A program made the position numbers and the translations under genes. The notes below the pieces were generated by a model, which was not told where the DNA came from, did not search any database, and worked only from the letters and a program-made list of their open reading frames with translations. Source: Pseudomonadota bacterium (GTDB taxonomy: Bacteria; Myxococcota; JACRCW01; JAFGSX01). Taken from it: DNA of 64,000 nucleotides. Positions 2,694-30,862 of this stretch are shown here, one piece after another (the stretch's first letter is position 1; every line of letters begins with the position of its first letter). The stretch lies in the NCBI GenBank assembly GCA_043821645.1, contig JBDRCO010000087.1, positions 160,001-224,000 on the forward strand. The letters are read 5' to 3'.

Positions 2694-2802
2694 GCTGGCC
2701 TCTTCTTCTGGGGACGGTTGGCCCGTCCCCTCGTCGGCGGGAGTGAATCCCACCGACTTCACCCCTGGCAGCACCTCGAGCTGTCGAAGGGCCGACAGTT
2801 CT

Positions 2803-6029: not shown

Positions 6030-6113
6030 GTTGATTCCATCACGAGGTCGTCGAAGGGACGCCTCGCGGTTGCATTGGCAGACCGCTCGCCGCTGGCAGG
6101 ACGAGGCGGGCGC

Positions 6114-6142
6114 ACCATAAGCACGGCCTCCGGGCCTGTCAA
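6114..6142 (-). promoter_or_regulatory. sigma70-type promoter for yidC-jag
   Basis: Minus strand TTGACA-17 nt-TATGGT. Confidence 0.65.
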
Positions 6143-6219
6143 CGTTGGCCCGGCACTGCGGCTGTGGGGGCGCTCGCGAGGCGGTTGCGCACTGGAGGCT
6201 CGCGTGAGAAGTGTCGCGC

Positions 6220-7440
6220 ATGCGCACCGCCGCCATCCTGGCCCAGGGCGAAGAGATCCTGGCCGGTACCACCCAGGACACCAACAGCAGCTGGCTGGCG
6301 CGGGAGCTGCGCGCCCGTGGTGTCGCGCCGGTGAGGCTCGCCGCCGCCGGTGACGACGCGCAGAGTCTTGCCGAGAGCCTGCGCTGGATCGCCCGCGACG
6401 TGGACCTGGTGGTGTGCAGCGGTGGTCTCGGCCCCACAGATGACGACTGCACGGCCGAGGCGGTGGCACAGGCCTTTGCCAGGCCCCTATCGCTCGATGC
6501 CACGGCGCTGGATCAGATCCAGGATCGCTTCGCGAGCTTCCATCGCCCCATGCCTCCCTCCAACCGCAAGCAGGCCCTGTTGCCGCAGGGGGCACGGCTG
6601 CTCGAGAACCTCGGCGGCACAGCCCCGGGCTTTGCCCTCGAACTCGGTTCCACCCGCCTGTTCTTCTTTCCCGGCGTCCCTCGCGAGCTGCGCGCCATGG
6701 CCCAGCAGCACCTGTTTAGCTGGCTCGAGGCCACCGGGGCCCGTCCCCTGCTGCGACACCGCATGCACGTGTGTGGCGTCGGGGAGAGCGCCCTGCAAGA
6801 CAGGCTCGCGCACCTGCGCCTGCCTCCTGGTGTGCTGTTGGGGTACCGAGCGTGGATTCCCTACAACAGCATCCTGCTCTACGCAGGGCCCGATGCTGCC
6901 GACGCCCTTGCCAGGGCGCGGTCACAGGTTCTCGAGGTGCTGGGCGAGGACTGCCTGGGAGAGGAGGAGGAGACTCTGTCCTCGGCAACCGGGGCGCGCT
7001 TGCAGGCCCGGGGCTGGCACCTGGCTGTCGCCGAGAGCTGCACGGCAGGTGGTCTGGGTGCGCTGGTGACCGAGGCGGCCGGGAGCTCGGCGTGGTTCGC
7101 GGGGGGAATCATCGCCTATGACAACAGGATCAAGCGCCAGTTGCTGCAGGTCGACGCTCGTCTTCTCGAGGTCCAGGGTGCGGTCAGCGAGGCCTGCGCT
7201 CTGGGCATGGCCGAGGGGGTGCGCACAGCCCTCGGTGTCGAGGTCGGGCTCTCCATCACCGGCGTGGCCGGGCCCGGAGGGGGCACAGCCGACAAGCCCG
7301 TGGGCACGGTCTGCCTGGGACTCACCACACCGGAGGGCCACAGCGCCCGCACGCTGCAGCTCGGTAATCGGGGGCGGGACCTGGTGCGAACCTTCAGTGC
7401 CGCCACTGCCCTGGAGTGGCTGCGCCGGCGCCTGGCCTGA
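6220..7440 (+). CDS. cinA: CinA family competence/damage-inducible protein (MoCF domain + PncC)
   Basis: GEEILAGTTQDTN, GGLGPTDDD, VAESCTAGGL, SITGVAGPGGG. Confidence 0.93.
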   Translation: MRTAAILAQGEEILAGTTQDTNSSWLARELRARGVAPVRLAAAGDDAQSLAESLRWIARDVDLVVCSGGLGPTDDDCTAEAVAQAFARPLSLDATALDQIQDRFASFHRPMPPSNRKQALLPQGARLLENLGGTAPGFALELGSTRLFFFPGVPRELRAMAQQHLFSWLEATGARPLLRHRMHVCGVGESALQDRLAHLRLPPGVLLGYRAWIPYNSILLYAGPDAADALARARSQVLEVLGEDCLGEEEETLSSATGARLQARGWHLAVAESCTAGGLGALVTEAAGSSAWFAGGIIAYDNRIKRQLLQVDARLLEVQGAVSEACALGMAEGVRTALGVEVGLSITGVAGPGGGTADKPVGTVCLGLTTPEGHSARTLQLGNRGRDLVRTFSAATALEWLRRRLA

Positions 7441-7443
7441 CGG

Positions 7444-8484
7444 TCAGTTGATGGCGCCGCCGGTCTCGCAACCGTAGACGAAGCGAAGCGCGGCAGAGCT
7501 CGAGTCCTCGAGGCGTGTGCACGTTGCAGGACACAGGCCGATGTTGCGCGGGTTGCGCGCGTTGTCAAAGTACCAGCCCTCGCCAGTGCCGCAGCTTGCG
7601 GCCGACGGCTTCGCAGCCAGCATCTTTTCTGGGGTGTTCAGATCGCTGTACATCACATTGACCAGATCGGGCTGCAGGACCTCGTCCCCGAGGTCAGGGA
7701 TCAGGAAGACGCAGCTTTCAACGCTGACCGAATCGCGGATCTCGGCCATGGCGGTGGTGAACTGCGAGACGTCACTGCTGACGTTGTAGGCCTGCCCGGT
7801 GCCGCCGGCCGCGGCGATCAGGTTGAGCTCGTACTCCGCAGAGGACGCCACCACGACCCCGTAGGTGGGGATTCCATGGGTGGAGTAGGCGTCGGCGGTC
7901 AGGGTGGCCACGACGTCGATGTCGCTGTAATCCTGGGGCTGGATCGGATCGTAATAGGTGTCGCACTCGCTTCCGGTTGGGGCGCCATCCCCGCTGATGA
8001 CCACCACCACCGTGTTCTCCGGAAAGCGCTGCTTGCGCTGGATGGCTGCCTGGTAGGTTCCGTCGAGGGCCCCGTACATCGGGGTGCCCCCTCCCACGGG
8101 TGTGTCGAGCTGGTCCTGCAGCCGCCGGATGTCGTAGGGCAACACGGCGAGGCGACTGCCGACGGCGCTCTGCGGAGGATCATACCAGTTGGGATCACAG
8201 GTATTGCCGATCGCTGCGGGCGCAGGGAAGAGGTTGAAGCCGACATTGATGCCCGCGGACTTGGAGTCGGAGAAGAAGGAGGTGAGGGCAGACTTGGTCG
8301 CAGCCCACAGGCTGCTCATGCTGCCCGAGCGATCCACCAGGAGGTAGATGTCAAAGGGCAGCACGTTGAGGATCTTGGCAGTTCTTGTGCAGTGCTGCGG
8401 TGGCAGGGGAGGTCGCTTGTCTTCGGGTTCGCACGCAGCGGATCCGAGGATCAAGGCGAGGAACACGATCGTCCTGGGCTTCAT
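7444..8484 (-). CDS. vWA domain lipoprotein
   Basis: Lipobox-like SAAC; MIDAS DRSGS, GGTP, DG; Cys-rich C-terminus. Confidence 0.8.
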   Translation of the reverse strand: MKPRTIVFLALILGSAACEPEDKRPPLPPQHCTRTAKILNVLPFDIYLLVDRSGSMSSLWAATKSALTSFFSDSKSAGINVGFNLFPAPAAIGNTCDPNWYDPPQSAVGSRLAVLPYDIRRLQDQLDTPVGGGTPMYGALDGTYQAAIQRKQRFPENTVVVVISGDGAPTGSECDTYYDPIQPQDYSDIDVVATLTADAYSTHGIPTYGVVVASSAEYELNLIAAAGGTGQAYNVSSDVSQFTTAMAEIRDSVSVESCVFLIPDLGDEVLQPDLVNVMYSDLNTPEKMLAAKPSAASCGTGEGWYFDNARNPRNIGLCPATCTRLEDSSSAALRFVYGCETGGAIN

Positions 8485-8587
8485 CGAACTCCCTCCGCCG
8501 CTCGAAGACTCATTCACACCAAGGTGCCATGACTGCGAGAGTATCGCAACGTCGGGAGGGGAGAACGAGGGACGGGCGCGTGAATGA

Positions 8588-9928
8588 TCAGGCGCGGATA
8601 TGGCCGAGGATCTCATCGCGCAGGGTTTCCAGGTGGGCCTGGCTATCGGCCTCGCAGTTGAGCCGGATCAGGGGCTCGGTGTTGGACTTGCGCACGTTGA
8701 ACCACCAGGTGTCCGCAAAGATCGAAAGGCCGTCGATCTCGATGATCTTGCCCTTGCTGCCGTACATCGTCTTGAGCTTGGTGAGCACCGCGTCCGGATC
8801 CCGGACCGTCGAGTTGACCTCGCCGGAGATGTGGTAGTTCGCAGTCTCCTTGAGCGCCTGGGCCAGGCTCATCTTCTTGTCGGTGAGGACCTGCAGGATG
8901 AGCAGCGCGGTGAGGTTGCCGGAGTCGAAGTAGGCGCCCTCGTGCTTGTAGTAATAGTGGCCAGACACCTCGCCACCAAACTCGGCGTCGTGCTCGCGCA
9001 TGTAGTTCTTGGCATACGCGTGGCCGACCTTCCACATGGCCGAGCGGCCGCCCAGCCTCTCGACGGTGTCGCGCACGTAGTTGGAGCAGCGCACGTCGTA
9101 GACGATGAGACCGCCTGGGTGTTTCTTCAGCACAGGCTGGGACAGCAGACCGACGATGAAGTCGCCCGAGCAGAACTCTCCGTTACCGTCGACGAAGAAG
9201 GCGCGATCCGTGTCGCCATCGAGGCCGATGCCGAGGTCCGCGCCGATCTCCTTCACCTTGGCGATGAGATCGCGACGGTTCTCCTCGAGCAGCGGGTTGG
9301 CCTCGTGGTTGGGAAAGCTGCCGTCGAGTTCGTAAAACAGAGGTGTCACCTGCACCGGTGAGCCTGCGAAGAGCTTGGGCAGGATCAGTCCGCCCATTCC
9401 ATTGCCGGCGTCGATCACGACCTTGAGCGGAGCCAGAGCCGAGGGATTGACGAAGGAGTGCATGAATCGGATGAAGGCATCGAGGATGTCGACCTCGGTG
9501 ACGGTGCCCGGGGCCGCGGCAAGGCCGCCCAGGTCTCCCTCGCGCACGCGGCGCTCGATCTTGTCGAGCCCGCTTTCGAGCCCCATGGGGATGGCGTGCT
9601 CGCGCACGCACTTGATGCCATTGTACTTGCCCGGGTTGTGCGAGGCCGTGACCATGAGCCCGCCCGAGGTGTGGCGGTCGAGCACGGCGAAGTACATCAT
9701 GTCGGTGCTGGAGAGCCCGATGCTGTCGACGGCGCAGCCCGCCTCGGTGAGGCCGCGGATCAGTTCCGCCGTCAGCGGCTTCGAGTGCACACGCATGTCG
9801 TGTCCCACCGCAACGCGGGTTGCGGCGGTCTCGGCCACGTAGGCGCGCCCGACCTTGTAGGCCAGGTCCTCGGTGATGTCCTCGCCGTACACGCCCCGCA
9901 CGTCATAGGCCTTGAACGGTCCAGCCAC
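8588..9928 (-). CDS. phosphomannomutase/phosphoglucomutase
   Basis: FKAYDVRG, TASHNP, DGDTDR, GEVSGH, RKSNTEP. Confidence 0.95.
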   Translation of the reverse strand: MAGPFKAYDVRGVYGEDITEDLAYKVGRAYVAETAATRVAVGHDMRVHSKPLTAELIRGLTEAGCAVDSIGLSSTDMMYFAVLDRHTSGGLMVTASHNPGKYNGIKCVREHAIPMGLESGLDKIERRVREGDLGGLAAAPGTVTEVDILDAFIRFMHSFVNPSALAPLKVVIDAGNGMGGLILPKLFAGSPVQVTPLFYELDGSFPNHEANPLLEENRRDLIAKVKEIGADLGIGLDGDTDRAFFVDGNGEFCSGDFIVGLLSQPVLKKHPGGLIVYDVRCSNYVRDTVERLGGRSAMWKVGHAYAKNYMREHDAEFGGEVSGHYYYKHEGAYFDSGNLTALLILQVLTDKKMSLAQALKETANYHISGEVNSTVRDPDAVLTKLKTMYGSKGKIIEIDGLSIFADTWWFNVRKSNTEPLIRLNCEADSQAHLETLRDEILGHIRA

Positions 9929-17836: not shown

Positions 17837-17950
17837 CATCTCGACGCAAAAGAAAGTGCCGTCGCCGAAAATCGCGTGCCGCGCTGCGCCATGGATGACG
17901 CTCCGCGGCGACAGAGCGTTCACAGTACAAAGGCGGAGCAGGCTGCGATC

Positions 17951-19762
17951 ATGAGCGAGAAGAAGGTCGAGGACCCCATCCTGAACAGCGTGGTGGCGGG
18001 TCGCTACGAGGTCTACGCCAAGCTGGGAGAGGGCGGCATGGGCGCTGTGTATGCCGCCCGGCAGGCCCCCCTGGGCCGCACCGTCGCCCTCAAGGTACTG
18101 CTCAAGCAGCTGTCCAAGGACCCCATCGCCATCAAGCGTTTCGAGAAAGAGGCGCTGGCCATCAGCAGACTGGCCCACCCCAACACCGTCACCATCTTCG
18201 ACTTCGGCACCACCGATCAGGGCCTGATGTACATCGCCATGGAGTTCCTCGAGGGACGCTCCCTGCGCGACGTGATTGGCAACGAGGCACCGCTGCGCCC
18301 TCGGCGGGTCGTGCGCATCCTGGCGCAGATGGTGCGAGCGCTCAGCGAGGCGCACCAGCGCGGCGTGATTCACCGCGACCTCAAGCCCGACAACATCATG
18401 CTGGTACCTACCGCCGGCGAGCCCGACTTCGTCAAGGTGCTCGACTTTGGCGTGGCCAAGCTGCGCGCGCCCGAAGGTGGCCCCGCGGTCAAGACCCTGA
18501 CCCAGGGCGACGTCATCTTCGGCACGCCGCGCTACATGAGCCCCGAGCAGGTCAACGGCATCATGGACGACCCCCGCAGCGATCTGTATGCGGTGGGTGC
18601 CATCGCCTACGAGATGCTGGCCAGCGTGCCTGTGTTCGATGGCGATTCGGCCATGACCATTCTCATCAAGCAGGTCCAGGACCCGCCGCGGCCCTTTGCT
18701 CGCCTGCCCAGACCCATCGAGGTGCCCGAGGCGCTCGAGGCGCTGGTGCTGCGCTTGCTATGCAAGGATCGCGAGCAGCGAATCCAGAGCGCGGATGCAC
18801 TGCTCGAGGCCCTCGACGAGTTACCTGTGCTCGGTGGCGGTCTGCGCCCTGCCTCCGGGCGTACCGAGACCATGGTCAAGCCCATGTTGACTCCCGACGC
18901 CACGCCGCGGGTGGGTACGGAGCTGATGGGGAGCAACTTCGCCCGCCCGCCAGCCCCCCTGCCGGGCGGTTCCGGCGCGGAGACAGCGGCGCTGAGTCCG
19001 CCCGCCACGGCACCGTCACCGGGGGCGGCCGAGCTGGCCGCAACCATCCCACCGAGCGAGGGGACAGCTCCGGTGCGCCGTTCTCCTGTCGCGCCGGCAC
19101 CAGCCACTTCTACCGACGACGACGTGGAGCTGCCGCGCCGCCGCGGGGGGCTGTGGCTCGCCCTGGCGGGTGGCTTGGTGCTGGTTGCTGCGGTGACGGT
19201 GTGGGCCCTGTCCGGTGACAAGGCGGCGCCGTTTCCGGACGACACCTCGGTGGCTGCACCTGCCCAGGCAGCCCTCGCGATCGTGGTCGAACCCGAGGGT
19301 GCCCTGATCACCGTCGACGGCGAACTTCGTGGTCAGGCTCCGCAGACCGTGCAGGTGTCCACCGGGCGCAGCCACCTGATCGAGGCCACGCTGGCGGGAT
19401 ATCTCCCTCAATCGAAGCAGGTGGCTGTCGAGCAGGCCACCCGCGTGGTCTTGAGCCTGCAAGCGGAGTCCCGTGACGTCGGGCCAGCGCCGGGCGAACG
19501 CGATGCAGGAGCCACCTCGCCCGGTGTCCGTCCCGGGACCGGAGCCAGGCCTGTCCCCGGCGCCACGAAAGGCAAACCCGATGCGGCGCAGGCGACGGCT
19601 GAACCGCAGCCCCAGGTCACCCCCGAGCCGAAGCCGGAGCCAAACCCGGAACCCAAGCCCGAACCCAAGCCCAAGCCGGAGGCCAAGCCGAAACCCAAGC
19701 CGGGGTTCGAGATCGACGACAGCGACTTCGAGAAGTTCGACGAGTTCAAACCCATCGAGTGA
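17951..19762 (+). CDS. membrane Ser/Thr protein kinase with PEGA domain and PEPK-repeat tail
   Basis: GEGGMG, VALK, HRDLKPDN, DFG, GTPRYMSPE; TM helix; PEGALITVDG. Confidence 0.92.
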   Translation: MSEKKVEDPILNSVVAGRYEVYAKLGEGGMGAVYAARQAPLGRTVALKVLLKQLSKDPIAIKRFEKEALAISRLAHPNTVTIFDFGTTDQGLMYIAMEFLEGRSLRDVIGNEAPLRPRRVVRILAQMVRALSEAHQRGVIHRDLKPDNIMLVPTAGEPDFVKVLDFGVAKLRAPEGGPAVKTLTQGDVIFGTPRYMSPEQVNGIMDDPRSDLYAVGAIAYEMLASVPVFDGDSAMTILIKQVQDPPRPFARLPRPIEVPEALEALVLRLLCKDREQRIQSADALLEALDELPVLGGGLRPASGRTETMVKPMLTPDATPRVGTELMGSNFARPPAPLPGGSGAETAALSPPATAPSPGAAELAATIPPSEGTAPVRRSPVAPAPATSTDDDVELPRRRGGLWLALAGGLVLVAAVTVWALSGDKAAPFPDDTSVAAPAQAALAIVVEPEGALITVDGELRGQAPQTVQVSTGRSHLIEATLAGYLPQSKQVAVEQATRVVLSLQAESRDVGPAPGERDAGATSPGVRPGTGARPVPGATKGKPDAAQATAEPQPQVTPEPKPEPNPEPKPEPKPKPEAKPKPKPGFEIDDSDFEKFDEFKPIE

Positions 19763-20763: not shown

Positions 20764-21393
20764 CGCGTTCTTCGTGGCGGGCGCCTGGACCTCACCGCGG
20801 TCGATGAGCGCGGCCAGCCGCACCAGATCCTTCAGCTCGTCCACGTCGAACCAGGGCGGCAGCAGCACGGGGCGCATGCCATTGTCGACCAGCCTGCGCT
20901 GCGTGGCCTGCGCGGTCGTGGGCGCGCTCCAGGGCAGATCCGCCAGCAGTCCCGCAGGGCATCGCCTCAGTGCCAGCAGGTAAAACCCCCCGTCGTCACT
21001 GGGTCCAAGCACGGCGTCGTGTCCGGCGACAAACTCGGCACGGCACTGCTTGAGAAACGCGACCGGGAGTCCCGGTGTGTCTGCACCCAGGGCGATGGCG
21101 ACGTCGGCATCCTGCAGGGCCCGTCGCAACACGCGCTCGATGCGTGCGCCCAGATCGCCTTCACCCTGTTCCCACTGCAGGTTCGCCGGGACGCCGTCGA
21201 CGGGTCCGGTGCACGCGAGCACGCGGCGGACCCAGCTCAGTTGCCGCAGGGCCGCCCAGCTGTCGTCGAGAAAGGCCTGCGCCAGGGTGACCGCTGCATC
21301 GTCACCCAGTGGGGCAGCCAGGCGTGTCTTGACCTGCCCGGCAACGGGGGGCTTGGCAAACAGGCAGCAGGTGATGCGCGGGTCAGCGGCCAC
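20737..21393 (-). CDS. DUF2064/TIGR04282-type glycosyltransferase-like protein
   Basis: FAKPPVAGQVKTRL, QGEGDLGAR, LGADTP, LGPSDDGGFYL, WFDVD. Confidence 0.85.
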   Translation of the reverse strand: MAADPRITCCLFAKPPVAGQVKTRLAAPLGDDAAVTLAQAFLDDSWAALRQLSWVRRVLACTGPVDGVPANLQWEQGEGDLGARIERVLRRALQDADVAIALGADTPGLPVAFLKQCRAEFVAGHDAVLGPSDDGGFYLLALRRCPAGLLADLPWSAPTTAQATQRRLVDNGMRPVLLPPWFDVDELKDLVRLAALIDRGEVQAPATKNALGTLGLGP

Positions 21394-21474
21394 GTGCGCT
21401 CCGCGAACGCACCGGCGAAGCCCGGTGGCGCCCGTCGAGGCAGAACCGCGTCGCGGCCTCTCGCTGCGTGCCCT

Positions 21475-21711
21475 TCACAGCTTGGTATGGCTGCCATCGC
21501 AGTACGGCCTGTTCGCCGAGTGCTTGCAACCACACCACGCGATCTTTTTCGGAGCGTCGAGCTTGACCTCGACGGGGGTGAACTCGGTGCCCTTGTGCGC
21601 ACCACTGCAAAAGGGCTGGGTGGTCGAGCGGCCGCAGGCGCACCACCAGTAGGTGCCAGCTTGCATATCGAGCAGGTATGGCGACTTCTGCGGGACCCTT
21701 GGTTCGCTCAC
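21475..21711 (-). CDS. CDGSH iron-sulfur domain protein (two NEET motifs)
   Basis: WCACGRS..QPFCSGAH and WCGCKHS..PYCDGSH; GGAGG RBS before GTG. Confidence 0.9.
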   Translation of the reverse strand: MSEPRVPQKSPYLLDMQAGTYWWCACGRSTTQPFCSGAHKGTEFTPVEVKLDAPKKIAWCGCKHSANRPYCDGSHTKL

Positions 21712-21935
21712 TGTGACCTCCAGTCGAAGGGACCATGTCGGCACCTGGCAAGCACCGAGAACGCACTGCCAGGGAGACCCATAAATACCCGGCTTTGGGA
21801 TGGGAATAGTGCACTGAGAGTGTTTTCATTGATGAAGTGCTCAACTATCGCAACCCGGACCTTGCACATGGCAGATTGACGAACCATCGTCTAAATTTGC
21901 TGCTGCTGGGTTCCGAGACCACCCACGAGAGGCGA

Positions 21936-22364
21936 ATGACCGCGTTCCCGCTCCACTGCCATTCCCCGAGCCTAGCATTCCGTGTCGAAGCGGAAAGCCC
22001 GCGTTTTCTTGCTCTTTGTGCGCGAGGCACCAGCATGGCCCCAGCATTGCGCAGCGGTGACTGGCTGCTGGTCGACGTGCAGGCCTCGGCGCCTCGCCCT
22101 GGCGAGATCTGGTGCTGCCACATCACAGGGCGTGTGGTTGCGCATCGGATTGTGTCCGTGGAAGAACGAGATGGCCGGACCTGGATTCGCTCTTGCAGCG
22201 ACGGCGGTCGGCTGGACCCCTGGACCGACAGCACCATTGGCCGGGTCGTCCTCGGGCTTCGCGAGGGCAAGCTATTCGATATCCCACGGAGGCCCCTGCG
22301 ACGCCGCCTCGCCTGGCTGAGGCGAACCGTCGCGGGCGCGCGCAGCCTGGGACGGGTGGCCTGA
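21936..22364 (+). CDS. S24/S26 family peptidase-like protein
   Basis: GTSMAPALRSGD (Ser), VVAHRIV (His), IGRVV; start uncertain. Confidence 0.75.
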   Translation: MTAFPLHCHSPSLAFRVEAESPRFLALCARGTSMAPALRSGDWLLVDVQASAPRPGEIWCCHITGRVVAHRIVSVEERDGRTWIRSCSDGGRLDPWTDSTIGRVVLGLREGKLFDIPRRPLRRRLAWLRRTVAGARSLGRVA

Positions 22365-22369
22365 CCACG

Positions 22370-22660
22370 ATGGCCAGGATCTCGCCACCTCGCCGCGCTG
22401 CCGACGTGTCGTGGCGCGAGATCGGTCAGGATGTGGTGGTCGTTCCCATCCGAACCTCGGTCGATCAACCTCTGTGCGTGCACACGCTCAACTCGGTGGG
22501 CGCGTTCATCTGGTTGCTGCTGGATGGAAACCTGACCGAGCACGAGATCGCCGCGCGCGTCGCCGAGCAGTTCGAGGTTGACGAGCAGCGGGCGTATGTC
22601 GACCTGCGGGACTATCTCGAGGAGCTGGCCGCCAGCGAGCTGCTGGAGTCGGACGGATGA
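22370..22660 (+). CDS. PqqD family RiPP recognition element (RRE)
   Basis: 96 aa; WREIGQDVVVVP, TLNSVGAFIWLLLDG, QFEVD...DLRDYLEEL. Confidence 0.9.
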   Translation: MARISPPRRAADVSWREIGQDVVVVPIRTSVDQPLCVHTLNSVGAFIWLLLDGNLTEHEIAARVAEQFEVDEQRAYVDLRDYLEELAASELLESDG

Positions 22661-23769
22661 GCAGCATGCTGCAGCAGCTTCCGGTTGAACCCACCTCGCC
22701 AGCCCCGGACGACGTCCTGGCTCGTGCGCTGCGGGGCACACGCGTCCCCTTCGCGGGGAACTTCGAGCTGACCCTGCGCTGCAACCTGAACTGTAGCCAC
22801 TGCTACCTTGGGCAGGACCGCGTCCGCGCCGAGCTTCCGACCGACGAGGTGCTGCGCATCCTCGACGAACTGGCCACGGCCGGTACCCTGGTGCTCGCGC
22901 TCACGGGGGGCGAGCCCCTGCTCAGGCCCGACTTCGAGATCATCTACCTGCACGCGCAGCGTCGGGGCTTCTTGCTCAGTGTGTTCAGCAACGGCATCGC
23001 CCTGACCCCACGACACGTCGAGATGTTCTGCGCTGCGCCACCGCGCGCCATCGAGATCTCCCTGTACGGGACCTCGGACGAGGACTATCTCCACGCCACG
23101 GGGTATCGCATCGCGTTCGGAAATCTTGACCGCACGCTGCGGTCCCTGCGCGACGCTCGGCTTCCGGTCCGACTCAAGACCATGGCCACGCGCACTCTCG
23201 GCCCACGCCTCGACGACATGCGCGCCTATGCCCGTGAGCTGGGCATCCCCCTGCAGTTCGGAACCGTCCTGTTCAGCGCGCGCGATGGCAGCCCGGGCGC
23301 TGATGGTGAGCGCCTCGACGCCGGGGCTGCGGTGGCCTTCGAGGCCCAGCCTGACGTCTTGTGTTACCTGGTCGAGCGCGATCGCGCCACCATGCCGACC
23401 CAGGACAGCCGGCGCGTCACCTGCGGAGCGGGGCGGGTCGCCTTCAGCATCGATCCCGCGGGGGTCATGCGCCGCTGCAGCGCCCTGCCCGTCAAGGCCA
23501 CCCCGGCTGCAAGTCTCAAGCACCTCAGCGTGCAGGAAGCCTGGCGAGCTCTCGGTGAGCAACTCGAGTGCGAGCTCCCGCGTGACCACCCGTGTCGAGG
23601 CTGCGTGCTGCGGCACCTCTGCAACCGATGCGAGGCCACGTTCTCGCCTTCCGTCCAGGTCGAGATGTGCGCGCATGCTCACGCGCGAGCGCGGCAGCTT
23701 GGCCACTGCGTGCCCGGAGACCCACCGCTACGCGCGTACCTGTCGCACGAGGAGTCTGCCGATGAGTGA
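22657..23769 (+). CDS. radical SAM/SPASM peptide maturase
   Basis: ELTLRCNLNCSHC, TGGEP, CGAG..SIDPAGVMRRC, CRGC..HLCNRC. Confidence 0.92.
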   Translation: MSSMLQQLPVEPTSPAPDDVLARALRGTRVPFAGNFELTLRCNLNCSHCYLGQDRVRAELPTDEVLRILDELATAGTLVLALTGGEPLLRPDFEIIYLHAQRRGFLLSVFSNGIALTPRHVEMFCAAPPRAIEISLYGTSDEDYLHATGYRIAFGNLDRTLRSLRDARLPVRLKTMATRTLGPRLDDMRAYARELGIPLQFGTVLFSARDGSPGADGERLDAGAAVAFEAQPDVLCYLVERDRATMPTQDSRRVTCGAGRVAFSIDPAGVMRRCSALPVKATPAASLKHLSVQEAWRALGEQLECELPRDHPCRGCVLRHLCNRCEATFSPSVQVEMCAHAHARARQLGHCVPGDPPLRAYLSHEESADE

Positions 23770-23938
23770 GAAGAAGAAGCAGCCAAAGCCGGCGCGGCGT
23801 CCATACCAGCGACCTCAGGTGCACAGGGTCCCCGTGTCGTCGGAAGAGGCCCTGCTGGCCGTGTGTCCTCTCAACGCGGGGGGCGGCACGCAGGGCTTCG
23901 AGGGCGCACCCTGTAGTGCCTGCTTCACGGCGAGCTAG
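23762..23938 (+). CDS. putative RiPP precursor peptide (58 aa)
   Basis: MSEKKKQPKPARRPYQRPQVHRVPVSSEEALLAVCPLNAGGGTQGFEGAPCSACFTAS; GAGGAG RBS; overlaps rSAM stop. Confidence 0.8.
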   Translation: MSEKKKQPKPARRPYQRPQVHRVPVSSEEALLAVCPLNAGGGTQGFEGAPCSACFTAS

Positions 23939-23946
23939 GTCGCGCG

Positions 23947-24840
23947 ATGAACAACCACGGCTTTACCTTGCGCCTGGGGCCATTGGGGCTGCACCTGCGG
24001 GGCGATCTCGACCCCGCCGAGCTGCCTCTGCCCGCTCGACCCTTTGTCGACGAGCCCCGCGAGGATGACCTGCTCGTCGAGACACAGCAGTTTCAGGATC
24101 GTGCGCGACAGTCCCCTAAGGGCTCCGATGCCCTGTCGTGGCGAGGTGAGCGTCGTGGCGATGAGCTGGCCTTCGCAGCCCACGCCTCGCCGGCCTCGCC
24201 GCCGCTGGCCTTGGCGACCCTGCGACCGGTGGGCGCGACCCTGCATCGTCGCCCCGAAGACAGCCGGCAGGTCGAGCCGGCCTGGTTCAACCCCCTGCTC
24301 CAGGTGCTGACGGCTCACGCTGCACCTCGCCGGCAGGGTCTTCTTCTTCACGCAGCCTGCGTCCAGCTGCGCGGTCGCGCCTGGCTGCTGGCAGGATCGT
24401 CGGGGTCGGGCAAGTCTACCCTGGCTTCGGCGCTGACCCGCCATGGCGGGCATATCCTCGCCGACGACCGCTCACTGGTCTTTGCGGGGCCACAGCCGGT
24501 CGCCTGCGGCACGCCCTGGGGTGGTGAGCCGGCTCTCAAGCGCGCCGGTACGATCGCGCTGGGGGGCATCCTCTTCGTGCAGCATGCGGATGAGGACGCT
24601 CTGCTCCCCCTCTCGCCAGTGGCGGCGAGCGCGCAGCTCCTGGCCGTGGTGCTCGGCCTGTTTTGGGACAGGACCCTGCTGGACCAGGCCATGGCCCTGG
24701 CGTGTGGGCTGGGTGGCGCGGGGCTGTGCTGGAGGTTCCGTGCTACAGTGTCCGGCCGTGCGCCTGAGTGCCTGCTCTCGCTGTGTGATCGCCTGGAGGA
24801 CCGACGAGTGCGCCAGGTCACGAACGAGGAGGCGGCATGA
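23947..24840 (+). CDS. HPr-kinase-related P-loop protein
   Basis: LLHAACV, GSSGSGKST, ILADDR, GTPW. Confidence 0.8.
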   Translation: MNNHGFTLRLGPLGLHLRGDLDPAELPLPARPFVDEPREDDLLVETQQFQDRARQSPKGSDALSWRGERRGDELAFAAHASPASPPLALATLRPVGATLHRRPEDSRQVEPAWFNPLLQVLTAHAAPRRQGLLLHAACVQLRGRAWLLAGSSGSGKSTLASALTRHGGHILADDRSLVFAGPQPVACGTPWGGEPALKRAGTIALGGILFVQHADEDALLPLSPVAASAQLLAVVLGLFWDRTLLDQAMALACGLGGAGLCWRFRATVSGRAPECLLSLCDRLEDRRVRQVTNEEAA

Positions 24841-27800
24841 CCGCTACAGCTTCTCGCGCACGTCGGACAGTTCACCTCTGGTGGCTCGGCGTGGTCCTGG
24901 CTGCGTGGCCGGCAGGAGCGCACGCCCAGGTCTTCTTCACGCCGACCATCGACGGCAGCAACGCCGAGTGGGGGAGTCAGTTCCACTACCTTGACGGCAA
25001 TGAGGCCGACACGCTGATCCCGGACAATCGCGACATCCGTGTGACCTACGTCGCCAACGACGCCACCTATCTGTACTTTGGCATCGAGACCTACGCCAGC
25101 ATGGGCAACATCGATAGCTTCAACCTGTACATCGACCGCGACAACGACGGTGGGGGGTTTGACTCTAATGACCGCGTCATTGGCGTCGACGTGAACACCA
25201 CCCTCAGCTGCACGGGTCTTCGGGTGTACACGGTCGACGGCAGCGGCACCCCGACTGGAAACGGCACCAATGTTGGCTGCAACAACAACTATGCTCGAGT
25301 TGGCTCCTTTGTCGAGGTCCGGGTCCTCCTCGCCAGGATAGGCATCGGCAGTTCCCCGACCGTCGGCGTGATCTCGGCCATCCGGCCGGTGACGGGCAGC
25401 TACTTCAACGTCTCGCCCAGCCCGCCCTTTCCGACATGGATGCTGTACAACAACACCGGCACCATCACCCCGACCCTGATCCGCGTTACCGCGCTGCAAG
25501 CCAGCGCCAAGGTCGCAGGTGTGGACGTCGAGTGGAGCACATCCGGCGAGCTGCTCAGCCTCGGCACCTGGGTACTCCGGCAGACCGCGCAGGGCGAGTG
25601 GCAGCCCGTGGGCGGCGGTCCGAGCCCCACCGGAATGGCCGTGGCCGGCGCGCGCTACAGGCTGGTGGACCCAGGAGGGCAGGCCGGCGACCGCTATGCC
25701 CTGGCCGAGGTCGACGCCAGGCAGCAGGTCCTGTTCTTTGGCCCCGTCGTCGCCAGCGCGGAGGACAGCCCCGGCAGGCCCATCCGCCAGCAACAGCAGC
25801 TCTGGCGAGGCGTGCCGCACCTCGGCACCACCCGGGGCGCCCTGCGCTCTGTCGAGCCTATCGGGAGCGCGGGCCCCAGAGTCCTGAGCGCGCCGCTGCC
25901 GCCGCTCGCCATGCAATGGCCGCCGCAACGCCGGTCCGTGCCTGAATCTGTGCTGCGCGTACGCGTGTTCGAGCCCGGTCTGCATGTGGTGTGTGATGAC
26001 GACCTGTGGCGATCGGGCTGGCAAAGGGCGGTTCCCGTCGTCACCCTGCAAGACCGCCCCTTGCCGGTGTGGCGCGTACCTGCCCGGCTCGCGGGCTGCC
26101 CTGGTCACGCGTTCTATGCGGCCCAACCGGCTTCGCCCCACGCACCTTTTGAGGCGTACCAGCTCAGGCCCGCGCGCCGCGGCACCCGCTATCCTGCGCT
26201 GCCCGAACCCGGGCGACGTGCGAACGCACCAGCGCGATCCCACTCTGTGGAGCAGCGCTCGCTGCGCCTGGCAAGTCCCACCTTCATCGACATGGGCGAT
26301 GGTTCGCCCAACCGCTTCTTCAGGCAGTGGGTCGCAGGCTTTGCCCCGCTGGACCTGGCTGCCCATCTCCCCGGCGCAGTGGCTGGCGCCGACGTCGTCA
26401 TGAAGGTGGACCTAAGACCGAGTCTCGTCGAGCCCGGCAGTGTGCACGAGCTGGTCGTCACCCACGGAGGCGGCCAGGTGAGCTCCCTGGCCGAGGGACC
26501 GGGTTGGCGCACGGTCGAGCTCACCCTGCCAGGTGCGGCGAGCGAGGAGCTGGCCCTGCAGCTCACCAGTGTCGACAACGGGCTGCTGTACGGAGGCGTG
26601 CTGGTCGGCGATACCGTGCTCGAGTACCCGGGCCGGCTGGCGCTGGAGCAGGGGCGCCTGAGCTTCGAAGCGACCGGTCCTGGCTGGGCCCTGGTCGGGG
26701 ACCGCACCAGTGATCAGGTGCTGGCCCTCGACGTCAGTGACCCGCTCACGCCGCTGCCGCTGCAGGTGAACCTGGTGGGCACGGCGCAGGTCGCGGTTCA
26801 ACTGGCACCCACGCGAGGGGTGCCGAGACGGGTGCTGGTGCTGGAGTGCTCGACGCTGCCCACGGCTGTGCTCGAGCGGGTCGAGACCGATCCTGCTATC
26901 GACGCTGCTAGCACCCACGGCGAGTATCTGGTGCTCGGACACGGAGCCTTGTTGCCGTCGCTGCAGCCCCTGGTCGAGCTGCGGCGCCAGCAGGGTCTGT
27001 CGGTTCAGGTGCTGTCACTGCAGGCGGTGTACGATCGCTTCAGCTTCTCGCAGACCGATCCGCGCGCCATTGCTGCGCTGCTGGCGTGGGCGCGGGAGCA
27101 CTGGGCCGCGCCGCCGCGCTTCATGCTGCTGGTGGGCTCGACCTCCTATGACCCCTGGGGCTACCAGGTGGGCTCGCCGGCTGCCGACGCGCCCATCCAG
27201 ACGCACTGGCTTGACAGCCTCGATCACCGCGCGTGGAGCGACTCGCTGCTGGTGGCCGACGCGGCAGGTCTGCCTCGCGTGGCCGTGGGGCGTTTGCCCA
27301 GCTCGGACCCCGTGGCCCTCGCGCGCTACGTGGCCAAGGTCGTGGACTACGAGGCCAGTCTAGCCACCTTGGGGCGCACCGGGGATGTGCTGGCGCTAGC
27401 AGGCCGCTCGCAGTTTGCGGCGGACCCGGACTTTGCGGTCCTGGCCTCGGCGCTGGCGGAAACCACGGGACTGGCAGCCGTCCCCATCGCGACCGGCGCA
27501 CCTGGCGCCGCTGAACAACTGAGTGCTACATGGCCGCTAGCCGAGCTGGTGCTGTACGTGGGACACGGCGACGCACAGGGCTGGGCCGACGACGCGCTCG
27601 ACCTGCAGAGCCCGGCCACGCTGTCTTCGCAGCGTCCTCCCGTGGTGATCAGCGCCACCTGCATGGATGGCATGTTCATGCGCCCGACGGGGAGCCTGGC
27701 CTGGGCGCTGCTGGACACGGCGAGCGACACGGGCGCCTCCCTGGCCATTAGCGCGACCAGCTTGCTTGATCCCAACGTGGCCTCTGGTTTTACTCAGCGC

Positions 27801-27944
27801 TTGCTGCAAGAAGCCCAGGGTGCCACCTGGGGCGAGGCATGGCTCGCGGCCCAGCTCGCTTCCGGTGACGAGATGGCGCACAGCATGGTTCTCATCGGCG
27901 ATCCCGCGCTGACCGCGCGCCTGCCCGCACCCCAGCACCCCTGA
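24837..27944 (+). CDS. secreted C25 family (gingipain-like) cysteine peptidase with N-terminal beta-rich domains
   Basis: Signal AHA-Q; PRFMLLVG, VAVGRLP, YVGHG (His), ISATC (Cys), LIGDP. Confidence 0.85.
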   Translation: MTATASRARRTVHLWWLGVVLAAWPAGAHAQVFFTPTIDGSNAEWGSQFHYLDGNEADTLIPDNRDIRVTYVANDATYLYFGIETYASMGNIDSFNLYIDRDNDGGGFDSNDRVIGVDVNTTLSCTGLRVYTVDGSGTPTGNGTNVGCNNNYARVGSFVEVRVLLARIGIGSSPTVGVISAIRPVTGSYFNVSPSPPFPTWMLYNNTGTITPTLIRVTALQASAKVAGVDVEWSTSGELLSLGTWVLRQTAQGEWQPVGGGPSPTGMAVAGARYRLVDPGGQAGDRYALAEVDARQQVLFFGPVVASAEDSPGRPIRQQQQLWRGVPHLGTTRGALRSVEPIGSAGPRVLSAPLPPLAMQWPPQRRSVPESVLRVRVFEPGLHVVCDDDLWRSGWQRAVPVVTLQDRPLPVWRVPARLAGCPGHAFYAAQPASPHAPFEAYQLRPARRGTRYPALPEPGRRANAPARSHSVEQRSLRLASPTFIDMGDGSPNRFFRQWVAGFAPLDLAAHLPGAVAGADVVMKVDLRPSLVEPGSVHELVVTHGGGQVSSLAEGPGWRTVELTLPGAASEELALQLTSVDNGLLYGGVLVGDTVLEYPGRLALEQGRLSFEATGPGWALVGDRTSDQVLALDVSDPLTPLPLQVNLVGTAQVAVQLAPTRGVPRRVLVLECSTLPTAVLERVETDPAIDAASTHGEYLVLGHGALLPSLQPLVELRRQQGLSVQVLSLQAVYDRFSFSQTDPRAIAALLAWAREHWAAPPRFMLLVGSTSYDPWGYQVGSPAADAPIQTHWLDSLDHRAWSDSLLVADAAGLPRVAVGRLPSSDPVALARYVAKVVDYEASLATLGRTGDVLALAGRSQFAADPDFAVLASALAETTGLAAVPIATGAPGAAEQLSATWPLAELVLYVGHGDAQGWADDALDLQSPATLSSQRPPVVISATCMDGMFMRPTGSLAWALLDTASDTGASLAISATSLLDPNVASGFTQRLLQEAQGATWGEAWLAAQLASGDEMAHSMVLIGDPALTARLPAPQHP

Positions 27945-27992
27945 TCCCTCGCAGCGGCGGTCCAAGGCTCCAGCTTGCGGCCCGCACCCTGT

Positions 27993-28913
27993 TCAGATCC
28001 GCGGCCTGAGCCTTTCGACCAGCGCGGTCACGTCCTTGGCGCTGCGCTGCCAGCCGCGCGCCACCACCAGATTCTCCAGATCAAAGGCCAGGGCCTCGCA
28101 GCTGTCGTGGCGCTTGCGGCTCTTGCGCTGCAGGGCCTGGCGCAGGATGGCGTCGAGCTCGGACGGCACCTCGTCGTAGATCTTGCTGGCCGCCGGGATG
28201 TCGGCGTCGCGCACGCGCAGCGCCTGCTCCAGGTCGCTCTCTCCATCGCGCAGGGCGTAGGGCCTCAGCCCGGTGACCATCTCGTAAAGGATCAGGGCCA
28301 GGGCGAACAGGTCGGCGCGGCCGTCCAGGTGCTCGCCGCGGATCTGCTCGGGCGCCATGTAGGCGATCTTGCCCTTGACCCCGCCCAGCACCGAGGTCAC
28401 GGACTCCAGCTTGCCCAGCTTGGCGATGCCGAAGTCGGCCACCTTCACCTGGCCAGCGCGGGTCAAGAAGATGTTGTCGGGGGAGACGTCGCGGTGCACC
28501 AGCTCGAAGTGGCGCCCCGACGGGCTGCAGGCCTCATGCAGGTAGTGCAGGCCGCGACAGGCCTCGATGGCGATGTGCAGGGCCAGGGGCGTGTCGATGA
28601 TCCCGTCCTGCTCCGGACCCTCGCGCAGGGCGTGAGCCAGGTCCAGCCCGTCGATGAGCTCCATGGCAATGTAGTAGTGCCCCTGCACCTCGTCGGATTC
28701 CAGGGTGTTGACCAGGTTGGGGTGATGCAGCAGCACGCTGATGTCGGCTTCGGTCAAAAACAGGTCCAGGGCCTTGGACTGCGCTTCCATCTCTGGACGC
28801 AGGCGCTTGAGCGCCACGTCTTCGCGGTGGCCGTCCTTGCGCGCGCGGTACACGTCGCACATGCCACCCGAGCCAATGCGCTCGATCAGGTTGTAGCGGC
28901 CAAGGCGTTCCAT
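27993..28913 (-). CDS. cytoplasmic Ser/Thr protein kinase
   Basis: GSGGM, VALK, HRDVSPDN, DFG, KGKIAYMAPE. Confidence 0.92.
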   Translation of the reverse strand: MERLGRYNLIERIGSGGMCDVYRARKDGHREDVALKRLRPEMEAQSKALDLFLTEADISVLLHHPNLVNTLESDEVQGHYYIAMELIDGLDLAHALREGPEQDGIIDTPLALHIAIEACRGLHYLHEACSPSGRHFELVHRDVSPDNIFLTRAGQVKVADFGIAKLGKLESVTSVLGGVKGKIAYMAPEQIRGEHLDGRADLFALALILYEMVTGLRPYALRDGESDLEQALRVRDADIPAASKIYDEVPSELDAILRQALQRKSRKRHDSCEALAFDLENLVVARGWQRSAKDVTALVERLRPRI

Positions 28914-29119: not shown

Positions 29120-30862
29120 ATGAAGCGCCACGCGATGCCGCTCCTGCTTGGCTCGACCCTGCTCTCCGCGGCCGCCCTGGCCGAACCCGGGGGCTTCTTC
29201 GACATGGGGGCCGACGACCAGCCTACCCAGGTGCTGGTGGATTTCACCGAGGTCGACGCCCAGGGCCTGAGCGAGCTGGCCAAGTCCATGGGCGTCAACC
29301 TGCGCTTCAACTCCGAGTTCAGCGACGCCGACGAGAACTTCGCGGTGGTCGAGGCCGACAGCCCCGGCATGGTGCAGCGCCTGATCTCCCTGTTCCAGGG
29401 CCGCGCCGACGTCGAGTCGGTGGAGCCCAACTACGTCTACCACGGCCTGTTCACGCCCGATGACCCCATGCTCAAGCACCAGTGGCACATGGACATGATC
29501 CACATGGCCGACGCCTGGGCCAAGGCCCGGGGCCGCGGCGTGGTGGTGGCGGTGATCGATACCGGCGTGTCCGACGGCAAGGGCAAGCTCAAGCCTGTCG
29601 AGGATCTGGACCCGGACCGCTTCGTGCCCGGCTACAACTTCGTCAGCGACAGCCCCGACGCCAGCGACGACCACGCCCACGGCACACATGTGGCTGGCAC
29701 CGTGGCCCAGAGCACGGACAACGGCAAGGGCGTGGCCGGCGTGGCCTTCGAGGCGCGCATCATGCCCATCAAGGTGCTCAGTGCCCGGGGCGGCGGCACC
29801 GTGTCCGACATCGCCGAGGGCATACGCTGGGCCGTGCGCCACGGCGCCGACGTCATCAACATGTCGCTCGGCGGACCCTTTCCGTCGCTGGCCCTGGCCC
29901 GCGCCGTGGCCTACGCGCGCTCGCACGGTGTGGTGGTGGTGTGCGCGGCCGGCAACAGCGGGCGCAAGGGTGTGGGCTATCCCGCGGCCCATTCCGGCTC
30001 CATTGCGGTCAGCGCCCTGGGGCCCGACAAGACGCTCAGCTTCTACTCGTCCTGGGGCAAGCAGGTGGCCATCGCCGCGCCCGGTGGCGATACCCGCGTG
30101 GACCTGAACAACGATGGCATTCCCGACGGCGTGCTACAGAACACGATCGTCCCGGGCGACCCCTCGCGCCAGGGCTACTTCCCCTTCCAGGGCACGTCCA
30201 TGGCCTCGCCCCACGTCGCTGGCGTGGCGGCGCTGATCATCGGCCAGGGCATCACCAGCCCCGACAAGGTGCAGGACATCCTCGAGGGCAGCGCCGAGAG
30301 CCTGGGCGACGGTGAGAAGTACGGTGCCGGCATGGTCGACGCGGCGGCCGCGGTATCGCGCGCCATCTGGCGACCTGGTCTGCTGCGTGCCCTGCTCATG
30401 GTCATCCTGGCCTGGCTACTGGCGCGCATCATCCGTACCAGCGACCGCATGTCGTCGTCGGTGGTGACGCCGGGCTTCGTGCTGGCCCTGGTTGTGGGCG
30501 CCTGCGGCCTGTTCTTCCTGCGTGGCTTCGAGACCACGCTGTGGCCGCTGTTCGTGGTCACCAGGCCCGCCCTCGAGTGGCCGGCTGCCCTGCTGGGCTG
30601 GAACTGGCACCTGAACGCTGTGGTGGGTTCGGCCTTGCCCGCCTTCGTGGTTGGTCTGCTGCTGTACGGCATCAAGCCGCTGCGGCCGCTCGCCGCGGGC
30701 TTCGCCGTAGGCGTGAGCGCCTACCTGCTGGCCTGTGCCGTCGACGGCAGTGTCAACGTGCGCTGGGTGCCGGGCGCCGGCGGTCTCTTCGATCGCGCGT
30801 GGCTGGCGGGCAATGCCCTGCTCACCTTCGGCATGGCGCGCATGATGGTTCCCCGACGCTGA
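29120..30862 (+). CDS. S8 subtilase with C-terminal multi-TM region
   Basis: IDTG, HGTHVAG, AAGN, GTSMASPH; several hydrophobic helices at C-terminus. Confidence 0.92.
   Translation: MKRHAMPLLLGSTLLSAAALAEPGGFFDMGADDQPTQVLVDFTEVDAQGLSELAKSMGVNLRFNSEFSDADENFAVVEADSPGMVQRLISLFQGRADVESVEPNYVYHGLFTPDDPMLKHQWHMDMIHMADAWAKARGRGVVVAVIDTGVSDGKGKLKPVEDLDPDRFVPGYNFVSDSPDASDDHAHGTHVAGTVAQSTDNGKGVAGVAFEARIMPIKVLSARGGGTVSDIAEGIRWAVRHGADVINMSLGGPFPSLALARAVAYARSHGVVVVCAAGNSGRKGVGYPAAHSGSIAVSALGPDKTLSFYSSWGKQVAIAAPGGDTRVDLNNDGIPDGVLQNTIVPGDPSRQGYFPFQGTSMASPHVAGVAALIIGQGITSPDKVQDILEGSAESLGDGEKYGAGMVDAAAAVSRAIWRPGLLRALLMVILAWLLARIIRTSDRMSSSVVTPGFVLALVVGACGLFFLRGFETTLWPLFVVTRPALEWPAALLGWNWHLNAVVGSALPAFVVGLLLYGIKPLRPLAAGFAVGVSAYLLACAVDGSVNVRWVPGAGGLFDRAWLAGNALLTFGMARMMVPRR

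Follow-up and report, generated by a model that had tools for sequence, protein, structure and literature searches.

A short gene between radical SAM and HprK-like genes as the probable precursor of an uncharacterised peptide-modifying operon

Does a reading frame of only 58 codons, lying between the genes of a radical S-adenosylmethionine (SAM) enzyme and an HprK-like protein, encode a genuine peptide substrate, or is it open by chance? The question is raised by a stretch of 64,000 nucleotides from a bacterium placed in the Myxococcota (assembly GCA_043821645.1, contig JBDRCO010000087.1, positions 160,001 to 224,000), the whole of which is called the window and gives the coordinates used below. 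A preliminary description, made from the sequence, had proposed that the frame is an overlooked precursor of a ribosomally made peptide with post-translational modifications (RiPP). The obtained results support well that the small gene is real and conserved, and that it encodes the substrate of a compact, uncharacterised peptide-modifying operon rather than a chance open reading frame (ORF). The gene, its start signal and the two predicted parts of its product are the following.

23762..23938, + strand: precursor peptide gene, 58 amino acids (aa) and stop, with ATG at 23762-23764 and TAG at 23936-23938; recognised by its homologues and its profile ranking
23749..23754, + strand: Shine-Dalgarno-like GAGGAG with a 7-nt spacer to the ATG at 23762; read from the sequence
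23762..23851, + strand: predicted leader, residues 1-30, with a Lys/Arg-rich start, Y15-Q-R-P18-Q-V20 and the end E28-E29-A30
23852..23935, + strand: predicted core, residues 31-58, with Cys35, Cys51, Cys54 and the C-terminal Ser58

The product of 23762-23938, as read from the sequence, is MSEKKKQPKPARRPYQRPQVHRVPVSSEEALLAVCPLNAGGGTQGFEGAPCSACFTAS (58 aa). Its landmarks are Tyr15 and Pro18, the segment EEALLAVC at residues 28-35, the cysteines at positions 35, 51 and 54, and a C-terminal FTAS. The TGA of the radical SAM gene (23767-23769) gives an 8-nt overlap with the precursor ORF, and a gap of 8 nt separates the precursor stop from the ATG of the HprK-like gene at 23947. The preliminary description had named this placement, a GAGGAG ribosome-binding site of the gene's own, a YxxP leader and the EEALLAVC, cysteine and FTAS landmarks, and all of these were recovered from the DNA and its translation. 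It was also right that the gene had no entry of its own in the ORF track; the program-made list holds a 270-aa open frame (23126-23938) which swallows the precursor and crosses the radical SAM gene in another frame. The G+C content of the precursor gene by codon position (0.64/0.56/0.80) is like that of the flanking genes, whose third positions range from 0.78 to 0.83. The peptide matched no Pfam or NCBIfam family. The ESM Atlas contains it, identical in every letter, and it is therefore hidden only relative to the initial ORF track. The nearest peptide clusters in the Atlas are unnamed proteins of 58-61 aa with 52-110 members (scores 0.93-0.94), which serve as leads only.

Conservation of a small ORF at the same place in related gene clusters can reveal whether it is kept as a gene. 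Related loci were gathered in one scan of a sequence collection with the radical SAM protein, which returned 80 loci; the scan used six exact 8-residue patterns, the generic CNLNCSHC was probably the source of most matches, and relatives of 40-60% identity may be missed. When the window proteins were compared with these loci by tblastn, PqqD-like and HprK-like genes were found around the radical SAM gene in exactly three of them, namely those from a member of the Desulfobacteraceae (L002), from the Nitrospinota (L001) and from Methanosarcina barkeri (L003), and these also have the best radical SAM identities (35%, 32% and 29%, respectively). Each of the three carries a small ORF on the same strand, between or adjoining the radical SAM and HprK-like genes. 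The Desulfobacteraceae ORF (8026-8205, 59 aa) shares nucleotides with the radical SAM stop, and 12 nt lie between its end and the HprK-like gene; the Nitrospinota and Methanosarcina ORFs encode 55 aa (8603-8770) and 37 aa (about 1632-1745). In the alignment, these three peptides and that of the window have in common a Lys/Arg-rich start followed by Y-x-x-P-x-[VL]-x2-[VI]-x-[VL]-x2-[EA]-E-[AV]. All four place a Cys 4-5 residues past the predicted leader-core junction, and the remaining core is variable, rich in Gly, Ala, Ser and Thr, with one or two further Cys. The Tyr and Pro of YxxP are invariant in all six aligned precursors, and at least two Cys occur in every precursor examined. A C-terminal Ser ends three of the four closest precursors, and the Methanosarcina one ends in Tyr.

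A leave-one-out comparison was performed: three of the four peptides made up the profile, and the targets were all segments between stop codons in the window and the 80 loci, 19,928 in number. The profile of the three related peptides returned the window peptide as its top non-training match (E 0.0086, 16.4 bits). Each of the other peptides was likewise the top non-training match when left out (Desulfobacteraceae 3.2e-8, Nitrospinota 3.6e-6, Methanosarcina 4.1e-5), and the runner-up segment had an E-value of 0.14 or worse. A tblastn search of the 80 loci with the window peptide found the Desulfobacteraceae locus alone (E 0.009), the other homologues being found through position and motif. The conservation in homologous clusters, whose absence the preliminary description had named as a refutation, is thus present, both as same-position small ORFs and in the profile ranking.

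The association of such peptides with HprK-like genes extends beyond the closest relatives. With the loci's own HprK-like proteins as queries, an HprK-like gene was detected in 10 of the 80 loci, and a YxxP small ORF adjoins it in nine; the tenth, L060, was left out of the precursor examination. One locus (L024) holds a cassette like those of the SynChlorMet (SCM) system, with two radical SAM genes and two precursors that have a K-K-x-Y-x-P-P-x-V leader. A second cassette type, seen in L055, L065, L031, L054 and L074, consists of PqqD, two radical SAM, precursor, HprK-like and signal-peptidase-like genes, and its precursor has 83-86 aa, the YxxP motif and 5-6 Cys. Precursors of the two-radical-SAM group end in T, H or G. 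The second type spans 6616-11040 in L055, and its five loci include metagenome-assembled genomes (MAGs) of Fermentibacteria and Aegiribacteria; the L055 and L065 precursors, the two that were scanned, gave no match to the SCM precursor model ScmA. In L060, a Sandaracinaceae MAG, the HprK-like gene (3032-4018, + strand) has the P-loop region closest to that of the window (57% identity over 54 aa) and lies beside a PqqD-like ORF in an otherwise different gene context. The Nitrospinota cassette has two PqqD-like genes, and its radical SAM gene, precursor and HprK-like gene are separated by small unrelated ORFs (8090-8572 and 8914-9400).

In the window, six same-strand genes from 21936 to 27944 follow one another closely; with the starts corrected from the sequence, neighbours either overlap by 4-8 nt or leave gaps of 5-8 nt. 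Their order is signal-peptidase-like protease, RiPP recognition element (RRE), radical SAM/SPASM enzyme, precursor, HprK/ScmC-like protein and C25 peptidase. The five genes around the precursor are listed here.

21936..22364, + strand: archaeal/ER-type (endoplasmic reticulum) signal-peptidase-I-like (S24/S26) protease, 142 aa, candidate leader peptidase; GTSMAP with Ser33, and His70-Arg71
22370..22660, + strand: discrete PqqD-type RRE, 96 aa; Pfam PqqD 55.6 bits (cut-off 23.4); the last 4 nt are shared with the radical SAM gene
22657..23769, + strand: radical SAM enzyme with a SPASM-type C-terminal domain, 370 aa; Pfam Radical_SAM 79.1 bits
23947..24840, + strand: HprK/ScmC-like P-loop protein, 297 aa, candidate peptide kinase; H135, GSGKST at 153-158, D173-D174
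24837..27944, + strand: C25 (gingipain/PorU-type) cysteine peptidase, 1035 aa; Peptidase_C25 131.5 bits over residues 697-1026; its ATG overlaps the HprK-like stop (ATGA)

The leader of the precursor, with Y15-Q-R-P18-Q-V20, fits the motif [Y/W]xxPx[L/V/I/F/A], which discrete lasso RREs recognise according to a recent report on linear polyphosphorylated peptides (LPPs; PMC13381572). A profile of the window RRE and its relatives (alignment A2, six homologues) was compared with solved structures and matched TbiB1 (5v1u, 4.7e-15), PbaB1 (9x90, 1.3e-9) and LppB (9x8z, 3.6e-8), all of which were solved with YxxP or WxxP leaders. The complex of RRE and leader was then modelled in three runs and three controls, with the RRE alignment as one input and the peptide alignment, cut to residues 1-36, as the other. 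The model scored 0.65 (runs 0.64-0.67) against 0.40 for the best of the controls. It thereby passes the mark for such scores, which 58 of 80 solved complexes and 2 of 110 mismatched pairs attain; these counts are a rough guide only because our own alignments were used. The runs agreed in at least 94% of contacts, with a partner pLDDT (predicted local distance difference test) of at least 62. In the modelled interface, peptide residues 12-26 face RRE residues 34-47, 64-70 and 75-91; Tyr15 contacts Phe68-Glu69-Val70, Pro18 contacts residues 43-47 and 78-82, and peptide residues 19-22 pair with the RRE strand 38-41. In the model, the leader motif thus lies along the beta-3/alpha-3 cleft of the RRE and forms a strand there. 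Conservation, the likeness to TbiB1, the complex model and the literature motif together support the earlier proposal of a RiPP precursor whose YxxPxV leader would be read by the adjacent PqqD-type RRE.

The radical SAM enzyme carries the cluster motif C42/C46/C49 (CNLNCSHC), and seven C-terminal cysteines in SPASM spacing (C256, C274, C313, C316, C322, C325 and C338) are conserved in the four closest homologues. None of the NCBIfam models reached its cut-off for this protein; the best was MftC (78 bits against 265), followed by AhbD, NirJ and PqqE. The best solved relative is the thioether maturase SkfB, both by sequence (2.7e-12) and by fold (2.8e-12), with MoaA, SuiB, PqqE, viperin, anSME and CteB close behind. 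The fold search, performed with a model of mean pLDDT 65.6, did not discriminate between chemistries.

Sequence scores for the HprK-like protein are weak, with 23.8 bits for Pfam Hpr_kinase_C (cut-off 33.3), 39.2 for HprK_rel_A (200) and 32.8 for ScmC (125). Its AlphaFold2 model has a mean pLDDT of 62.9, rising to about 80 over residues 120-290. The top folds in the PDB were chains of HprK/P (1kkl, E 2.1e-5, probability 1.00, TM-score by target 0.39-0.51), and the next were PEP (phosphoenolpyruvate) carboxykinases. His135, Lys156 (within GSGKST) and Asp173-Asp174 are conserved in the alignment. A His-Lys-Asp-Asp motif is reported as essential in lasso-tailoring kinases in a review (PMC9266682), and H135, K156, D173 and D174 fit as candidates for this motif. 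The kinase proposal of the preliminary description thereby gains indirect support, from the HprK fold, from these candidate residues and from the Ser that ends three of the four closest precursors. The ESM Atlas also contains the HprK-like protein, identical in every letter. The nearest Atlas clusters are named ScmC or HPr kinase, Pfam PF27840 (ScmC) occurs in 16-27% of their members, and Myxococcota, Acidobacteriota and Nitrospirota are the phyla most often represented. The structural neighbours include a cluster of radical SAM+ScmC fusions (584 members, commonest in Aminicenantota), a cluster of Peptidase_S24+ScmC fusions (69 members) and an ScmC cluster of 2,844 members, mostly from Bacteroidota. 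The two fusions are Rosetta-stone hints that link the three activities.

For the first gene of the operon, the sequence led us to move the start to the ATG at 21936; a gap of 5 nt separates the gene from that of the RRE. Its product matched Pfam Peptidase_S24 with 27.2 bits (cut-off 23.3), as scored on the longer start at 21837. In alignment A3, Ser33 corresponds to Ser in the Nitrospinota and Desulfobacteraceae proteins and to Cys in that of Methanosarcina, and His70-Arg71 is invariant. The A3 profile matches SEC11C (8.1e-9) and SEC11A (3.9e-8) over the S-M-x-P, H-R and T-K-G-D blocks. A tblastn search of the 80 loci with the window protein found nothing at E 1e-2, and the loci's own peptidases found nothing in the window at 1e-3; the assignment in the window derives from the Pfam match and the motif alignment. 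The homologous genes scored 59.3 (L001), 43.8 (L002), 50.1 (L003) and 41.4 bits (L055) with the NCBIfam model sigpep_I_arch (cut-off 51.85), and signal-peptidase-like genes were also found by tblastn in L065, L054, L031, L074 and L080. By analogy with LppS of the LPPs, the protein is likely the leader peptidase. In the Methanosarcina peptidase (3080-3676, + strand), Cys (in G-M-C-M-Y-P) takes the place of the Ser that is the presumed nucleophile of the bacterial homologues. In the Nitrospinota locus, a signal-peptidase-like domain is fused to a GNAT acetyltransferase domain (4882-5724).

The last gene encodes a C25 peptidase whose N-terminus has, by eye, the look of a signal peptide, which points to secretion. 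Its C25 domain aligns with PorU (6za2) over the GHG and ATC blocks, which we take to hold the catalytic His and Cys. Through the ATGA overlap, the gene is coupled in translation to the HprK-like gene. The Desulfobacteraceae locus encodes a 2108-aa protein (119-6445, + strand) with a C-terminal C25 domain (24% identity over 401 aa), and the gene stops 143 nt before the PqqD gene of the cassette. A C25 neighbour is thus present in two of the four closest cassettes (the window and the Desulfobacteraceae locus) and absent from the Nitrospinota and Methanosarcina loci.

On this evidence, the ORF is very probably the genuine precursor of the six-gene RiPP operon at 21936-27944, acted on along the following lines. 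The RRE would present the precursor to the radical SAM/SPASM enzyme, which would modify the Cys-containing core, most likely through Cys-to-carbon thioether cross-links. Cys35 would be the likeliest donor, as it is the only conserved core residue. The HprK/ScmC-like protein would phosphorylate a hydroxyl residue, the best candidate being Ser58 at the C-terminus, by the precedent of paeninodin-type lasso precursors; HprK-like kinases phosphorylate the Ser that ends lasso precursors, as the review states (PMC9266682). The signal-peptidase-like Ser/His protease would remove the leader after E-E-A30 from the RRE-presented peptide, as LppS does in LPPs, where it requires the RRE for cleavage after F-E-T (PMC13381572). 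The end of the leader was set at Ala30 because its register agrees with that of the LPP leader, with Tyr at -16, Glu at -2 and a small last residue in both. The co-transcribed, secreted C25 peptidase might act on the exported product or have some other functional link to it. Thioether formation, phosphorylation of Ser58 and cleavage after Ala30 are steps that we infer. More tentatively, and as a possibility to which we give less than even weight, the window cassette and its relatives from Desulfobacterota, Nitrospinota and Methanosarcina could form a new RiPP class, in which radical SAM cross-linking would be combined with (poly)phosphorylation by HprK/ScmC-like proteins and RRE-guided release by a signal peptidase homologue.

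Several observations weigh against this interpretation. No radical SAM relative among the 80 loci exceeds 35% identity, and none is therefore close enough for an estimate of selection. The window peptide is the weakest of its group in the leave-one-out comparison (E 0.0086), and the group is defined by four sequences only. The C-terminal Ser is not universal, given the Tyr of the Methanosarcina precursor and the T, H or G of the two-radical-SAM group. The chemistry of the radical SAM enzyme is not settled, because its relatives span thioether, C-C cross-link and non-peptide types (SkfB, PqqE, SuiB, MoaA, viperin and MftC). For the signal-peptidase-like protein, sigpep_I_arch gave 19.0 bits on the longer 21837 start, under the cut-off of 51.85, and the window sequence has SCSD where the others have TKGD, which makes the third catalytic residue doubtful. 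Similar complexes have already been solved (5v1v, 9x8z, 9x90 and 6jx3), so the score of the RRE-leader model may reflect likeness and does not show binding; the control in which the RRE was replaced and the peptide kept still scored 0.40. No exporter was identified among the 56 window ORFs covered by the Pfam scan.

The precursor could be real and the chemistry another one. The radical SAM enzyme might epimerise residues, form C-C or C-O cross-links or act on the C-terminus in the manner of MftC, and the ScmC-like protein might phosphorylate a residue other than Ser58, polyphosphorylate the peptide or serve as an ATP-dependent scaffold. We regard this as a serious though rather unlikely alternative. 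The mycofactocin maturase as top NCBIfam match (78 bits, ahead of AhbD, NirJ and PqqE), the C-C cross-linkers SuiB and PqqE among the fold neighbours, Cys35 as the sole conserved Cys of the core and the C-terminal Tyr of the Methanosarcina homologue are all consistent with it, but the best solved match by both sequence and fold is the thioether maturase SkfB (2.7e-12 and 2.8e-12), and all precursors examined have at least two Cys. As for the kinase, the LPP target is Ser3 of the core and not the C-terminus (PMC13381572); however, no Ser or Thr occupies the predicted core positions 1-4 of the window peptide, so that an LPP-type Ser3 site is absent, and three of the four closest precursors have the C-terminal Ser. 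The product might also be a peptide-derived redox cofactor, similar to pyrroloquinoline quinone (PQQ) or mycofactocin, instead of a secreted natural product, in keeping with a discrete PqqD-like chaperone beside a PqqE/MftC-like radical SAM enzyme, with MftC as best NCBIfam match and with an operon that has no exporter. This we consider improbable, since the core sequences vary strongly between homologues, unlike those of cofactor precursors, no cofactor-using dehydrogenases are encoded nearby, a kinase-like protein and two peptidases are foreign to the known cofactor pathways, and all family scores lie far under their cut-offs.

Two further explanations were weighed. High-GC DNA yields many long spurious ORFs; the genome has 68% G+C, the frame is open from 23006 and the peptide belongs to no Pfam or NCBIfam family, as would be expected of a chance frame in an operon whose radical SAM enzyme acts on another substrate. 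The ribosome-binding site at the right distance, a pattern and position kept in three cassettes of phylum-level distance, the significant leave-one-out profile and a predicted RRE docking that engages exactly the conserved motif make such a coincidence highly improbable. A lasso peptide precursor with tailoring enzymes would explain the YxxPxV in the leader, an RRE closest to lasso B1 proteins and, as the review describes HprK-like kinases as lasso tailoring enzymes (PMC9266682), the kinase-like gene as well. The Pfam scan of the 56 window ORFs, those of the operon included, identified neither an asparagine-synthetase-like cyclase nor a transglutaminase-like B2 peptidase, and the cassette is for this reason not a lasso system; moreover, no Asp or Glu stands at predicted core positions 7-9, and the operon peptidase is of the signal-peptidase type, which leaves a lasso precursor with hardly any probability. 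The preliminary description had missed three points, namely that the system is not a lasso one, that a signal-peptidase-like gene lies upstream, and that there is a connection with the SynChlorMet/ScmC cassettes.

The surroundings of the operon are those of an ordinary chromosome (window G+C 68%), with genes for YidC, acetate kinase, UppS, CdsA, FabH and GrpE-DnaK-DnaJ in the rest of the window. A spacer of lower G+C precedes 21936, and in this upstream part the opposite strand carries the gene of a CDGSH iron-sulfur protein (21475-21744, - strand, Pfam zf-CDGSH 67.3 bits). A + strand ORF at 21019-21879 was considered as a gene and rejected as spurious, because it matches no family and is antisense to the CDGSH gene and a DUF2064 gene. 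A promoter and terminator scan of 21400-28300 gave nothing that exceeded shuffled sequences. The window further contains four Hanks-type Ser/Thr kinase genes (17876-19762, 27993-28913, 45085-46857 and 61569-63635), of which one encodes a PEGA domain, and at 29120-30862 the gene of an S8 subtilase that carries DUF5942; such a gene content, taken with the 68% G+C, suggests a genome like those of the Myxococcota.

To our knowledge, cassettes of the ScmC type have long figured in annotations with neither a product nor a precursor logic known for them. The present operon assembles their parts compactly and connects them with two systems studied by experiment, the leader removal of LPPs by an RRE-guided signal-peptidase homologue and the phosphorylation of lasso precursors by HprK-type kinases. 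It also yields testable predictions, namely docking through Tyr15 and Pro18, cleavage after E-E-A30, Ser58 as candidate phosphosite and Cys35 as cross-link donor. An operon of about 3 kb with a 58-aa substrate is easy to express and can serve as a good lead for genome mining. If the dual modification holds true, the product would be a new type of scaffold, and a toolkit thought to be confined to the Bacillota would reach other bacterial phyla and archaea. If the new class holds true, peptides both phosphorylated and cross-linked would be the products of the large ScmC/SynChlorMet superfamily, which so far has none and has Atlas clusters as large as 2,844 members; the LPP toolkit would be ancient and not peculiar to the Bacillota, and the product may have the C25 peptidase as its partner or target.

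Comparison with known systems can place the cassette among the peptide-modifying pathways already described. Linear polyphosphorylated peptides (lppA-K-B-S-D-N; Popov et al., Nat Commun 2026, PMC13381572) are described as confined to the Bacillota, with a leader consensus YxxPxVLxHQxIxFET that precedes the core, and radical SAM is mentioned nowhere in the text of that paper. The window operon resembles them in a signal-peptidase-I-like peptidase that adjoins a discrete RRE, in the HprK-like kinase, in the equal leader register (Tyr -16, hydrophobic -11, Glu -2 and a small residue at -1) and in its RRE family, of which LppB (9x8z, 3.6e-8) is a significant relative. It differs in the addition of a radical SAM/SPASM enzyme and a C25 peptidase, and in that no NTP (nucleoside triphosphate) transferase or MsbA-like exporter was identified in the operon or the 56 ORFs scanned; homologues of neighbour genes in the Nitrospinota and Methanosarcina loci that were suspected to encode nucleotidyltransferases, and that match no family, are absent from the window as well. 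The window leader shares YxxPxV and the Glu at -2 alone and has no HQxIxFET, its core begins L-L-A-V-C without a Ser3, and the host is a 68% G+C genome rich in Hanks-type kinases as opposed to the Bacillota of the LPPs.

The SynChlorMet system is defined by NCBIfam/TIGRFAMs models (ScmA TIGR04252, ScmC TIGR04249, ScmD TIGR04248 and ScmE/ScmF TIGR04250/04251), and a literature search found no paper on its product. The window operon shares with it a PqqD-like protein, radical SAM/SPASM enzymology, an HprK-like ScmC and a small Cys-containing precursor; the SCM-like precursors of L024 have a related leader, and ScmC is also the name given to the Atlas clusters closest to the HprK-like protein. 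The window proteins match these models weakly, with scores far under the cut-offs, however (ScmC 32.8/125, ScmD 22.6/100, ScmE 50.4/400 and ScmF 42.9/400), the ScmA model did not match the window peptide at E up to 0.01, and the operon has one radical SAM gene, where SCM has two, and a signal-peptidase-like gene. From the phosphorylated lasso peptides of the paeninodin family it is set apart by the absence of a macrolactam synthetase and a B2 cysteine peptidase, and by the presence of a radical SAM enzyme and, as putative leader peptidase, a serine-type signal-peptidase homologue. The sacti- and ranthipeptides (SkfB, CteB) offer the auxiliary-cluster Cys in the radical SAM enzyme, the Cys in the core and, in SkfB, the best solved match, whereas in the window the RRE is a protein by itself and not joined to the maturase as its N-terminal domain, the leader has a lasso-like motif, kinase-like and signal-peptidase-like tailoring is added, and the thioethers are here predicted ones. 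No paper on the combination of radical SAM enzyme, HprK-like kinase, PqqD/RRE and signal peptidase was found in a search that did not reach most subscription journals. Scores below the Scm cut-offs, together with the absence of the NTP transferase and exporter, of the FET/Ser3 signature and of a lasso cyclase, set the cassette outside LPP, SCM and lasso systems. It appears to work like a merger of the LPP/phospho-lasso toolkit with a SynChlorMet-type radical SAM system, while being a member of neither.

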